From the IMG/VR virus record IMGVR_UViG_3300025584_000449, positions 1 through 64,000 of that record: 64,000 nucleotides of DNA; one strand, 5' to 3'. This document shows, piece after piece, positions 38,499 through 54,411 of the stretch. A program made the translations under genes and the position numbers. The DNA comes from a virus. How positions within the stretch are numbered: position 1 is the stretch's first letter; each line of letters begins with the position of its first letter. A model generated the notes under the pieces. It saw only the letters and a program-made list of their open reading frames with translations. It did no database searches and was not told where the DNA came from.

Positions 38499-38532
38499 AA
38501 AAATGTGGGCAGGATAGCCTACCCACAAAGAT

Positions 38533-38589
38533 CTAATCTTTTAACCACCAGAAAAGATCGAGAATCTGAAGGATACAACAAATTTTCAT
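38533..38589 (-). CDS. Putative 18-aa hydrophobic peptide MKICCILQILDLFWWLKD
   Basis: GAGGAGG SD 9 nt upstream; terminator-like hairpin downstream (38499-38527). Confidence 0.4.
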   Translation of the reverse strand: MKICCILQILDLFWWLKD

Positions 38590-38635: not shown

Positions 38636-38716
38636 GGTGGAGGTGCAGGGTATCGAACCCTGGTCCTACTACAGTGCGCTTCGGCTTTGCAGTAGTCGAA
38701 CAGCCTTTTCACCCCC
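38636..38716 (-). ncRNA. Mini-tmRNA: tRNA-like domain only, no mRNA-like domain
   Basis: GGGGGTG/CACCTCC acceptor with G3.U70 and A73; stemless D loop ending GG..TTCGAC; helix TACTGCA/TGTAGTA; GGAC elbow; T arm. Confidence 0.75.
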
Positions 38717-38719
38717 AAA

Positions 38720-38811
38720 GTGGTTGTGAGTATAAACCTCTCTCGCTTATACTGTTCACAGTTTCGCCAGGCACTGAGAGTACGTTTGAACGCTCTCGTG
38801 AATACAACCAC
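38720..38811 (-). ncRNA. Multi-stem small RNA candidate directly upstream of the mini-tmRNA
   Basis: GTGGTTGT/ACAACCAC closing stem; GAGAG/CTCTC and AGTATAA/TTATACT hairpins. Confidence 0.4.
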
Positions 38812-38813
38812 TA

Positions 38814-38888
38814 GGTGCGGAATGACGGACTTGAACCGCCGACACTCTGGATGTAACCCAGATGCTCTTCCAGCTGAGCTAATCCCGC
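38814..38888 (-). tRNA. tRNA-Val(TAC)
   Basis: Cloverleaf; loop GTTACAT. Confidence 0.85.
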
Positions 38889-38890
38889 AA

Positions 38891-39487
38891 TTAATTAAAC
38901 ATTATTTCTATATGCTCTTTTGGCAATTCTTTTTTAATTGCTTGTGCTAATTCTCTAATTTCCCAAAGAGCAGCTTTGGACATTCTTAAACTTAAAAAGT
39001 TTCTTAAACTTCTAGCATTAATAGTCCATACAGCCTCAAACTTTAAAGACTCTGGTATTTTGTGTTTAAATCTGTCTGGAACTAACCCTTTACGTTTTAC
39101 GATCTCTATGAGATTTTTAACATATTCAAATTCTAATTGATCCAAATCAGGATCGGTGCTTACAAACTGCTCACTTAATTCTTCATCTGTAAGTTTACTT
39201 AATTTCTTTAAAGTATACCGAGTACTTCTTACAGAAGGAGAAGCGATTCTATGTCTCGCTAGCTCCTGCAATACTGCTCTACTAAATCCCTCAATCTTAA
39301 AAGTATATACTATATGCTCTATTACACTCTCATGATTTTTAGCTAAAATACTTTTTAATAGAGCCATATCGCGTGGTCCATTATTGTCACTTTTATCCAT
39401 TGAATCCCAGCAAGTTCTTGCTGCTAATACTGCTAAATCAATCGGACTATTATATAATAGTTCCACACGTTGTGTATTTTTACTCAT
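38891..39487 (-). CDS. thyX: FAD-dependent thymidylate synthase
   Basis: HESVIEH, SRAVLQELARHRIASPSVRSTRY. Confidence 0.95.
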   Translation of the reverse strand: MSKNTQRVELLYNSPIDLAVLAARTCWDSMDKSDNNGPRDMALLKSILAKNHESVIEHIVYTFKIEGFSRAVLQELARHRIASPSVRSTRYTLKKLSKLTDEELSEQFVSTDPDLDQLEFEYVKNLIEIVKRKGLVPDRFKHKIPESLKFEAVWTINARSLRNFLSLRMSKAALWEIRELAQAIKKELPKEHIEIMFN

Positions 39488-39576: not shown

Positions 39577-40071
39577 TTATTGCTTTGTTGTAGTCTGGAC
39601 CATCTCTTCACCATCAGCATTACCTGTTACGGTGGGTAACGTATGGCCTCTGAGGGCTTCCTCAAAGGATCTGTAGTTATCCATGTAGTGCACGTTTTTT
39701 TCCTGATTATTCTTTGTAGGAATAGTCCTAAAAGACATGGTCTTTCTTTTTCCTTTTGACAAAAGATACTTACTATTTATATAAGCTATTTTATCTTCCT
39801 CAAAAGCATATAGAGCAAAAATATCTATATCCCCATCATCGTAAATATACGAATAATTTGGACCAGATTTTTTCGTATCTATAGTTACCAGATCTTTATG
39901 TGCTTTTCGTGCCTTTACTTGGATTTTTACAGGTCTTTGACCAACTAGTGCAATTAAATCCACTCTTGAGTTGTCTCCATATTCTATAAATACGGGATAT
40001 CCTCTAGAAAGTAGATCTTTCATTATAACTAGCTCGCCCAAAGCGCCTTTTTCTTTTGAGTGTAGTTCCAT
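39577..40071 (-). CDS. Intron-encoded PD-(D/E)XK homing endonuclease (I-Ssp6803I-like)
   Basis: KGALGE...GDNSRVDLI...KIQVK; the ORF runs into the intron core. Confidence 0.85.
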   Translation of the reverse strand: MELHSKEKGALGELVIMKDLLSRGYPVFIEYGDNSRVDLIALVGQRPVKIQVKARKAHKDLVTIDTKKSGPNYSYIYDDGDIDIFALYAFEEDKIAYINSKYLLSKGKRKTMSFRTIPTKNNQEKNVHYMDNYRSFEEALRGHTLPTVTGNADGEEMVQTTTKQ

Positions 40072-40824: not shown

Positions 40825-41167
40825 TATTATCCTTCTGAAAAAACAGTTCTAAATTACCGTCTTTATTTTCTTGAGCAAAAGCAAAGCGCCAACTTTCTTC
40901 ATATAGCTTATCTAACGCCCCAATAGTTATTTTTTTGGATGAGGTTAGTTCTATAGTTTTCCAATTATCGCTTTTCTTTTTTCTCTTTGCTTTCTTTTTA
41001 GCTGTCGGTATAACTGTTTTAGTTTCTTTTTTTACTTCTTTTTTTGCTGGTGTTTTAGCTTTTGCTTTAGTCACTTTTTTGACTGAGGTTCTGCTTTTTG
41101 CTTTGTCCTCAAGCGTAACACCTGCTGCAATTTCTGCCTTGGTTCGTCTTACTCTTTTTTGAGCCAT
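40811..41167 (-). CDS. Lys/Ala-rich, histone-H1-like putative DNA-binding protein
   Basis: KKVTKAKAKTPAKKEVKKE. Confidence 0.5.
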   Translation of the reverse strand: MAQKRVRRTKAEIAAGVTLEDKAKSRTSVKKVTKAKAKTPAKKEVKKETKTVIPTAKKKAKRKKKSDNWKTIELTSSKKITIGALDKLYEESWRFAFAQENKDGNLELFFQKDNSVQK

Positions 41168-41784
41168 TATATTATCTCATCTATAAGTTCAAACTCTAAA
41201 CACTGCTCAGCAGTGAGATAAAAATCATGCTCCATTTTTCTTTTCCAATAAGCTATATCCTTATTAGAAAATTCTGCGAAAAGTTCATACAATCTATTTT
41301 GTAATTTTGTTAAATGTTTAACTTCATTGGTGATTGTAGAAACTTTCCCGCTATACCAAGAGCTTATTTGATGAATCATAGCATAGCTATCTTGACCCAT
41401 CGACCTTACCCCTGTGCCTGAAACTAATAGTACTGCTGCTGCAGACATTGCTGTTCCAAAACATCTTGTATTAATCAGGACTGGGGCTGTTCGAACAATA
41501 TCAACTAACCCGTAACACCCATATATATCTCCCCCATAAGAGGATATTTCTAGGGTGATGGGTTTCTTTTTATCAGCTTCATCAGATAATTGATTTATTA
41601 ATCTAATTATTTGTGAAAGCCAAATAGGTGATATAAGTTCAACATCATCAGTAAAGTATATTATTCTTTCTTTTGAATTAAAGGACCATTCGGTCTCGTA
41701 GAATAATAATTCTTTACGTTTTAGATCTAAATCAGATCCTTCTAAAATTTTTGGTTTTTTACTATTTTCTATAGAAGGATTCAT
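41167..41784 (-). CDS. clpP: ClpP-like protease subunit
   Basis: SYGGD, AMSAA (Ser), MIHQ (His), DFYLTAEQCLEFELIDEI (Asp). Confidence 0.9.
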   Translation of the reverse strand: MNPSIENSKKPKILEGSDLDLKRKELLFYETEWSFNSKERIIYFTDDVELISPIWLSQIIRLINQLSDEADKKKPITLEISSYGGDIYGCYGLVDIVRTAPVLINTRCFGTAMSAAAVLLVSGTGVRSMGQDSYAMIHQISSWYSGKVSTITNEVKHLTKLQNRLYELFAEFSNKDIAYWKRKMEHDFYLTAEQCLEFELIDEII

Positions 41785-43786: not shown

Positions 43787-44815
43787 TTATATATCGGTTG
43801 GGTTTCCTGAAAAAATTATTTTGTTCTCTTTAATATTGTTATGTTCTAATAAAAAGTCAAGCACAAAACCTTTAAACACCTCAAAAGTTTCAAATACTTG
43901 TAATCTATTGTAAGCATGTAACTTAAATGTTCCTACTAGAATTAAAATATCAATCTTGTTGAAGATCACATTGTTAGTTCCAGTAGCTGTTATTGCATAG
44001 GATAGTTTATCTAGATCTAGCCATCCTATATGTCTCTGTCTACCAGTAGTTACTCCGATCTCATTTCCTTCTATACGAATTTTATCGAAGATTTCATCGT
44101 CAAGACCTTGTTCTCTGAATTGTTTAAATCCTGAATAAGTCTCGTACACTTTAGCACATCCATAGATATCTCTAAGACTTTGAGGAGCTACTCCAGCCGT
44201 GAAGGCAGAGCAGGGCAATACACTGCTTGAGGTTACATATGGGTAATCTCCATGGTCTATGTCTAGCCAGAACCCTTGAGCGCCTTCGAATAATATATTG
44301 ATGTCTCGAAAGCCATCCAATTTATTTAATACTTTTACCGGATCCACAGTAAAGTCTTTTAGTAACGGGTGTGTCTCTGCTCTGATGTTTGTTCTATGCA
44401 TTTTTCCAGCATAGCACGGGCCGTTGCCTTGAAGCGTGACTCCAATAGAGCTATCTTTTTTATCTTGTTTTAGATGTTTATCTTCTATTACGTGAGCATT
44501 CTTTGCAATAAATAATCTATTGCGAATGTCCATATCAGAGGCATTTTCAACTTCTTCAAGCTCTTCTAAGAATTTCTCTGGATTGACTACGCAACCCGGC
44601 CCTATTAAAGATTTGGTTGATGCTTTTACTGGAAAGGGAATAGAATGTGTTTGTATCTTTTTTCCATCTATATATGATGTATGTCCTGCATTATGTCCGC
44701 CGTTGAAGCGAACTACCCAATCATAATTAAATGTTTTTTGGAGAGATGTGCTCACCTTCCCTTTCCCTTCGTCGCCCAGCTGTAACCCCACCACAATGTC
44801 TGAATTCAAATTCAT
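43787..44815 (-). CDS. purA: Adenylosuccinate synthetase (short form)
   Basis: GDEGKGK, GGHNAGHT, EGAQG, YPYVTSS, TTGRQR. Confidence 0.92.
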   Translation of the reverse strand: MNLNSDIVVGLQLGDEGKGKVSTSLQKTFNYDWVVRFNGGHNAGHTSYIDGKKIQTHSIPFPVKASTKSLIGPGCVVNPEKFLEELEEVENASDMDIRNRLFIAKNAHVIEDKHLKQDKKDSSIGVTLQGNGPCYAGKMHRTNIRAETHPLLKDFTVDPVKVLNKLDGFRDINILFEGAQGFWLDIDHGDYPYVTSSSVLPCSAFTAGVAPQSLRDIYGCAKVYETYSGFKQFREQGLDDEIFDKIRIEGNEIGVTTGRQRHIGWLDLDKLSYAITATGTNNVIFNKIDILILVGTFKLHAYNRLQVFETFEVFKGFVLDFLLEHNNIKENKIIFSGNPTDI

Positions 44816-51010: not shown

Positions 51011-51083
51011 GTGGAGCTGAAGAGGATCGAACTCTTGACCGCCGGATTGCAAACCCGGTGCTCTACCGCTGAGCTACAGCCCC
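51011..51083 (-). tRNA. tRNA-Ala(TGC)
   Basis: Cloverleaf; G3.U70. Confidence 0.9.
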
Positions 51084-54281: not shown

Positions 54282-54411
54282 GGTGGAAAGATCTGGATTC
54301 GAACCAGAGTCTGATGGGTTTAGCCCATTGTTTTAGCCACGTTACTTACTAAACGTTTAAATAGACACTGTACACATGTCCCGTTAGCTTTCATTCCAAA
54401 ACTATCTTCCC
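54282..54411 (-). ncRNA. 130-nt tRNA-like RNA with an Ala-type acceptor and no anticodon arm
   Basis: GGGAAGA/TCTTTCC-A-CC with G3.U70; T arm TCTGG-TTCGAAT-CCAGA; branched interior. Confidence 0.6.

Follow-up and report, generated by a model that had tools for sequence, protein, structure and literature searches.

The Locus and Its tRNA-Rich Setting

The window—the whole 64-kb stretch of DNA analyzed here—covers positions 1–64,000 of an IMG/VR virus record that is 179,902 bp long, has a GC content of 36%, is rated 89% complete by CheckV, and carries 21 tRNA genes, ThyX, ClpP, and a fused RNA polymerase. The 21 tRNA genes called by ARAGORN lie between 35971 and 58663, all on the minus strand. 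Within this interval, also on the minus strand, an 81-nt element at 38636–38716 encodes the entire tRNA-like domain (TLD) of a tmRNA, its two acceptor strands arranged in the normal order; the 5′ end of the RNA is 38716 and its 3′ CC lies at 38636. We refer to this TLD-only gene as a mini-tmRNA. Its identification draws on the Rfam tmRNA model RF00023, on a covariance model (R2) built from 96 sequences with phage DS6A included and the window element left out, and on the MFE fold. A first-pass annotation, made from the letters alone, had proposed an 81-nt element here, and both models bear it out (51.3 and 66.0 bits, respectively).

The acceptor stem opens with the 5′ strand GGGGGUG (38710–38716), which holds G3 of the G3·U70 pair and forms seven of seven pairs with 38639–38645. 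It is followed by the D-loop analog AAAAGGCUGUUCGA (38696–38709), which is stemless and carries GG and UUCGA(C) in the RF00023 alignment. Helix 2a consists of a 5′ strand CUACUGCA (C-UACUGCA, 38688–38695) that forms 8 bp in the fold with the 3′ strand UGUAGUAG (UGUAGUA-G, 38666–38673; fold and covariation); between them, the apical 14 nt AAGCCGAAGCGCAC (38674–38687) occupy the place of the pseudoknot/mRNA-like domain. The GAC of the GGAC junction (38663–38665, with the preceding G at 38666; RF00023 alignment) leads into the T arm CAGGG-UUCGAUA-CCCUG (38646–38662; fold and RF00023 alignment), after which the RNA runs ...CCUCCACC, with the acceptor 3′ strand CACCUCC (including U70), discriminator A73, and CC at 38636–38645 (sequence and RF00023 alignment). 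All of these features are on the minus strand. RNAfold returned the same three helices in the MFE structure (−32 kcal/mol, z −2.56). Every TLD hallmark that the annotation had listed—G3·U70, A73, a stemless D loop ending in UUCGAC, helix 2a, GGAC, and the T arm—is thus in place, and among them G3·U70, A73, UUCGAC, and GGAC are sequence determinants for AlaRS and SmpB.

One detail of the original description required correction. The gene does not encode a CCA end: it reads ACC and then U (38635), so the terminal A is missing and must be added to the transcript. The phage shows the same habit in its tRNAs: of the 21 genes, 14 finish with NCC and a following T, which implies that the transcript is trimmed just after CC and then receives its final A. 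A nucleotidyltransferase of the CCA-adding type is encoded outside the window at genome positions 143,933–144,289 (minus strand; PF01743, 73 bits).

The RF00023 alignment spans model positions 1–374, with 14 nt of the element replacing 308 internal positions. Pseudoknots PK1–PK4 and helix 5 are absent with these positions, and the 14 nt between the helix 2a strands hold no mRNA-like domain, that is, no resume codon, tag frame, or stop codon, as the annotation had concluded. Its description of the 14-nt segment as a loop calls for a second correction: the segment is the counterpart of a conserved AAA-hairpin-AC module in relatives, although only marginally stable here (−0.6 kcal/mol). A hairpin of at least 3 bp occurs in the apical module of 49 of 67 relatives, compared with 34 in shuffles.

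The alignment likewise upholds the annotation's statement that this is not a permuted two-piece gene, given the normal order of the acceptor strands. A permuted candidate from model RF04321 was rejected: it scores 19.5 bits against a cut-off of 47, has two mismatched acceptor pairs, and reuses the mini-tmRNA T arm before running into the downstream terminator and tRNA-Gln. A search of the 179.9-kb record for a tag-coding partner piece, a finding that would have told against the proposal, returned none.

The upstream neighbor on the same strand is tRNA-Val(UAC) (38814–38888, minus). Between the two genes lies a 97-nt structured 5′ leader (38717–38813, minus; MFE −30.9 kcal/mol, z −3.28), whose fold is a closed multibranch structure with a 9-bp terminal stem, three arms, and competing GAGAG/CUCUC/GAGAG segments. 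This leader was considered as a partner piece or as a tRNA and set aside: it matches no Rfam family, is not called by ARAGORN run in bacterial mode, and is not repeated in the genome. Directly downstream of the mini-tmRNA is an 18-codon micro-ORF (38533–38589, minus) with a strong GAGGAGG ribosome-binding site; after it, ~110 nt downstream of the mini-tmRNA, come a terminator-like hairpin with a U run (38504–38527, minus) and then tRNA-Gln.

Several protein genes complete the neighborhood. ThyX occupies 38891–39487, a PD-(D/E)XK endonuclease ORF 39577–40071 (minus; PF11645, E 2e-18), and adenylosuccinate synthetase 43787–44815. A ClpP-family protease gene of 205 aa (41167–41784, minus; PF00574, E 1e-28) sits among such early/metabolic genes as ThyX and adenylosuccinate synthetase, 2.5 kb from the mini-tmRNA. 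The phage has a normal tRNA-Ala(UGC) at 51011–51083 (ARAGORN), and neither ARAGORN nor the Rfam tRNA model finds a tRNA-Lys in the window. No SmpB gene was found in the phage record, so the mini-tmRNA must work with host SmpB; the record also yielded no peptidyl-tRNA hydrolase (Pth) and no RF-1/ArfB-type domain.

Detection and Phage Relatives

Covariance models and gene finders treat the element differently. The RF00023 score exceeds the gathering threshold of 47 (E 2.8e-17 in the 64-kb window); this match is seen on the window and on a 3-kb locus, whereas a 121-nt slice gives nothing at the gathering threshold because the filters need more flank. R2 assigns an E value of 1.5e-11, with the phage tRNA-Ala as runner-up in the window at 31.8 bits, and a search of the whole 179.9-kb record gave no further tmRNA-type match save this weak tRNA-Ala cross-match. 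ARAGORN at default thresholds calls neither a tRNA nor a tmRNA at the locus; at 70% thresholds it mislabels the element as tRNA-Ala(tgc), with UGC at positions 26–28, and down to 50% it reports no tmRNA or tag there. The expectation that finders would miss or mislabel the gene therefore stands for ARAGORN and fails for Rfam/Infernal, which detects it above threshold.

In BLAST searches against isolate phages, the locus itself had no match. A consensus-like family member used as the query returned mostly T-arm similarity to tRNAs, but pointed to Streptomyces phage BRock. An unannotated copy lies there at KX925554.1 97140–97220 (minus; L276 1501–1581; 64.1 bits), 77 nt after BRock's own tRNA-Val(UAC), in the gene order of the window and of its closest relative, described below.

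To survey relatives of this phage, we used 19 IMG/VR loci that encode a homolog of a neighboring 421-aa protein and searched the full records of 18. A mini-tmRNA was present in one of the 18—G001, the closest relative (51% identity), at 54306–54388 (L147 1501–1583, +), scoring 60.5 bits—and was absent from the records of the 17 more distant relatives, so the gene is dispensable in the wider phage lineage. The G001 copy follows its tRNA-Val(UAC) by 4 nt, leaving no counterpart of the 97-nt leader, and the gene order is otherwise like that of the window. Ten base pairs differ between the two copies (one acceptor, seven helix 2a, two T-stem), and all ten still pair; all helices are intact in G001, and G3·U70 is retained. 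The G001 copy has a noncanonical T loop, GGCGGCA rather than UUCGAUN, and a single G in its D loop. These changes at the elbow may reflect a concerted change of contacts, or divergence or early decay.

Conservation Across the Mini-tmRNA Family

We scanned IMG/VR with a pattern that combined the TLD hallmarks with a short middle and required CGAC and the GAC of the GGAC junction. The strict version matched 14 contigs and a relaxed version at least 120. Four matches that resemble the 3′ ends of full-length tmRNAs (L069, L072, L117, and L040) were removed from the viral set, leaving 89 distinct sequences among the matches listed.

The 89 sequences fall into two discrete size classes, 63–73 nt and 75–89 nt. 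In the long class, to which the window element belongs, helix 2a is followed by a conserved AAA, a 3–5-bp hairpin, and AC. In the short class (L036, L045, L055, L100, L108, L145, and others), a 4–8-nt loop closes helix 2a. Short-class genes tend to adjoin DnaB-type helicase, nuclease, or terminase genes on GC-rich contigs, and none of 24 has a tRNA gene within 300 nt.

Pairing in the family is strongly maintained. Across 93 distinct sequences, 98.9% of helix cells form standard pairs, compared with 71% in shuffles and 49–60% when partners are slid. In the model-based alignment of these 93 sequences, 431 cells have both sides changed, and double changes occur at 11 of 18 pairs: acceptor pairs 4–6, five of the six modeled for helix 2a, and three of the five in the T stem. 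This covariation is real, because the pattern left the paired N positions free of any complementarity constraint. Several unpaired positions that the pattern did not fix are also conserved, namely the U before CGAC (96/96), a D-loop G (86/96), and the T-loop U that precedes the T-stem 3′ strand (alignment column 105; 92/96); CGAC and the near-invariant GAC, by contrast, were required by the search pattern.

Genomic context links part of the family to tRNA genes. A tRNA gene lies no more than 300 nt away from 19 of the 89 distinct members; all 19 are in the long class, and 18 share the strand of that tRNA gene. The association with tRNA-Val(UAC) is not general across the metagenomic family. Family genes have no constant protein-family neighbor; their neighbors are lineage-specific replication and packaging genes. 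Among the matches listed, 71 of the 89 distinct genes encode the full CCA.

The same pattern was applied to bacteria, using one genome per prokaryote species, and 80 loci were listed. Most of the 86–90-nt matches turned out to be ordinary actinobacterial tmRNA genes of full length, matched at their 3′ ends, and were rejected as false positives. In nine of the 80 loci, all seven acceptor positions are complementary. Five of the nine, located on MAG contigs and 63–83 nt in length, we accepted as genuine minis; the remaining four (86–90 nt) we took for ends of full tmRNAs. The MAGs that carry minis are labeled Pseudanabaenaceae cyanobacterium, Butyrivibrio, Pirellulales, Saccharibacteria, and an Iainarchaeum archaeon bin. 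The mini-tmRNA family is essentially phage-borne. In the literature searched, we found no paper that describes a TLD-only family at such scale.

The closest described precedent is an entry, "Mycobacterium phage DS6A (TLD only)," listed by Hudson, Lau, and Williams in 2014 (PMC4131195). We located this gene at JN698994.1 28478–28560 (+; L275 1501–1583); it is unannotated in the record and appears on the tmRNA Website as tmID 11587. R1, a model built from IMG/VR sequences with DS6A not included, scores the DS6A element at 70.3 bits, and the two architectures agree down to the AAA-hairpin-AC module. Both genes are phage-borne, ~81–83 nt long, nonpermuted, and devoid of a tag frame; both have G3·U70, A73, a stemless D loop with UCGAC, helix 2a, and a T arm, and neither encodes the full CCA. 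By family covariance models, the window element scores 77.4/66.0 bits. The two differ in setting: in DS6A, a 60-kb temperate actinophage, the gene is isolated among protein genes and sits ~10 kb away from the integrase, whereas the window element belongs to the tRNA cluster of a phage with 36% GC and a genome of ~180 kb or more. Their sequences cannot be aligned outside the constrained motifs, and the apical hairpin is weaker in the window element. On this evidence the locus almost certainly encodes a phage tmRNA of the DS6A type, reduced to the TLD and lacking a tag; its 81 nt fit the ~60–90 nt expected of that type.

Other tmRNA forms share parts of this design. Standard one-piece tmRNA (SsrA, RF00023) has the whole TLD, the alanine-identity elements, and the SmpB-contacting UUCGAC/GGAC in common with the window element, which lacks the resume codon, tag frame, stop codon, PK1–PK4, and helix 5 of SsrA. 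Full-length phage tmRNAs, known from the mycobacteriophage Bxz1 group, Bacillus phage G, phiCbK-like phages, and Pelagibacter/OM43 myophages (PMC4131195, PMC9004378), are phage ssrA homologs that often lie beside phage tRNA genes, as here; unlike the window element, they keep a tag frame, in one or two pieces, and can complete trans-translation. CDS-less tmRNAs are also known from organelles—jakobid and oomycete mitochondria, and ~65-bp plastid genes of Mallomonadaceae (PMC11915505; Jacob et al. 2004)—and these likewise combine a TLD without a tag frame with SmpB from another genome. The mitochondrial forms differ in being permuted and two-piece, in descending from the endosymbiont, and in serving the organelle's own ribosomes instead of being directed at a host under attack.

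Such genes are sparsely represented in current catalogs. The 2025 tmRNA database holds nine "Standard, no CDS" entries among 97,179 sequences, and only 79 phage tmRNAs (PMC11915505). In their survey of huge phages, Al-Shayeb et al. relied on ARAGORN for tmRNA calls (PMC7162821), a tool that misses the TLD-only form.

Proposed Function of a Tag-Less tmRNA

In trans-translation, AlaRS charges the TLD, which associates with EF-Tu as a tRNA would, while SmpB stands in for the anticodon arm; a fragment consisting of the TLD alone, accompanied by SmpB and EF-Tu, enters the A site of a nonstop ribosome (PDB 4V8Q; review PMC8012679). Judged by its sequence, the mini-tmRNA keeps all the features for these TLD steps and none for the mRNA steps; with the mRNA-like domain missing, it cannot perform the mRNA half of the process. 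Two ideas offered in the first-pass annotation, sequestration of SmpB and addition of alanine without a tag, are already published for phage DS6A (PMC4131195, PMC11915505). As cited in those two papers, Mao et al. 2009 reported that a DS6A-like TLD-only RNA inhibits E. coli tmRNA, and according to PMC4131195 the inhibition is said to hold "whether or not chargeable."

We favor a reading in which the mini-tmRNA is a charged competitor of host tmRNA that takes up SmpB and stalled ribosomes and so prevents SsrA tagging, and we assign it a probability of roughly 0.55. The analysis shows directly the structure, the homology, the conservation of alanine identity, a tRNA-like gene context, and the absence of a tag or partner piece; that the RNA is expressed, charged, bound by SmpB, and active on the host we infer. 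The RNA would be transcribed from the minus strand together with the neighboring tRNA genes and excised like a tRNA, its "NCC then U" end being that of most phage tRNA genes; the terminal A would be supplied by a CCA-adding enzyme, of which the phage encodes one. Host AlaRS would then charge it with alanine through G3·U70 and A73, and host SmpB would bind through the D-loop/UUCGAC/GGAC elbow. In its charged state, the RNA would be a rival of host tmRNA for SmpB, EF-Tu, and stalled ribosomes; as it offers no resume codon, tag frame, or stop codon, proteins on the stalled ribosomes would receive no SsrA degradation tag. The net effect would be suppression of host trans-translation tagging during infection, with nascent chains, including those of phage proteins, left untagged.

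Conservation of the alanine-identity elements bears on the choice among functional readings. Relaxed IMG/VR scans for a non-T at position 70 and for a non-A at position 73 each returned zero contigs, compared with at least 120 for U70/A73, with both variant scans conditional on the remainder of the search pattern. A G3-C70 pair is absent although it would be more stable and is one mutation away, which argues, from sequence, that selection acts on alanylation, or on recognition by AlaRS at the least. An RNA that acted purely as an SmpB sponge, for which alanylation and ribosome entry would be irrelevant, would have no need of G3·U70, of A73, or of an encoded CC(A), and the full CCA in most of the distinct genes listed likewise speaks against it. 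The E. coli result quoted by Hudson et al. (PMC4131195) does agree with a sponge, and inhibition irrespective of chargeability, as that source words it, fits a simple sponge better than a charged competitor. Weighing these points, we regard a pure sponge as improbable.

The same invariance, together with the retained tRNA-type elbow, argues that charging and ribosome entry matter, and it would suit a productive, tag-free rescue device rather than an inhibitor. Here the Ala-TLD with SmpB would take over the nascent chain, and the resulting peptidyl-Ala-TLD would be freed by ArfA/RF2, by ArfB, by drop-off and Pth, or after repeated rounds of alanine addition, so that ribosomes would be recycled without the normal SsrA tag. 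Nature offers partial parallels: jakobid and oomycete mitochondria retain CDS-less tmRNAs alongside SmpB, and these RNAs are thought to aid nonstop mRNAs, and natural two-residue Ala-Ala tags exist (PMC11915505). The RNA has no stop codon or release function of its own, however, the phage contributes neither Pth nor an RF-1/ArfB-type domain, no conserved protein partner accompanies the family genes, and the sole experiment reported in the sources as cited, on the DS6A-like RNA in E. coli, gave inhibition. Tag-free rescue is accordingly the less expected outcome, though a credible minority view. A more specific proposal reads the invariant G3·U70/A73 as a requirement for alanylation and action on the ribosome, rather than SmpB sequestration, and makes the mini-tmRNA a template-free "alanine-capping" device; we offer it as speculation that is unlikely to hold.

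Two nonfunctional or conventional explanations fare worse. The element could be a relic, either a decayed full-length phage tmRNA or a captured fragment of host ssrA such as an attachment-site copy: the gene is missing from most of the relatives' records, the T loop of G001 is aberrant, temperate phages often carry pieces of ssrA, which serves as a site of integration, and two isolate-phage matches (Alcaligenes and Bordetella phages) cover the 3′ half only. Attachment-site copies, however, have only the 3′ part of ssrA, whereas this element retains an intact D loop and T arm and both strands of the acceptor stem, and the DS6A gene lies ~10 kb from its integrase. Compensatory changes between the window and G001 preserve every helix, and the size of the family and its two discrete size classes likewise stand against decay, with purifying selection on structure evident; a relic is very improbable. 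Still less can be said for an aberrant tRNA-Ala(UGC) that decodes GCN codons, as the ARAGORN call at 70% thresholds would have it. The element has no D stem; the alternative "anticodon stem" is mismatched, with C in place of U33; the 8-bp helix 2a is the stable and covarying fold; the UGC triplet is not conserved in relatives; and the phage already has a normal tRNA-Ala(UGC). Comparative structure effectively refutes this candidate, to which we give almost no weight.

Taken alone, the locus adds a further case to an RNA type already described and would not surprise a tmRNA specialist. Its value is comparative: the "TLD only" form of DS6A turns out to represent a large, structurally conserved, mostly phage-borne family, with invariant alanine-identity elements, that is invisible to ARAGORN, the tool of huge-phage surveys (PMC7162821). 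Culturable carriers with an unannotated gene—DS6A on Mycobacterium and BRock on Streptomyces—make the mechanism directly testable. The question they address is whether a message-less tmRNA on the ribosome is a sponge, a dead-end competitor, or a tag-free rescuer, and the same question applies to the CDS-less tmRNAs of mitochondria and plastids. If alanine-capping were true, a stalled chain would receive one Ala per round, possibly over several successive rounds, and host trans-translation would be turned into tag-free rescue or Ala-tailing under phage control; this would be a widespread phage strategy, overlooked since ARAGORN-based surveys miss such genes.
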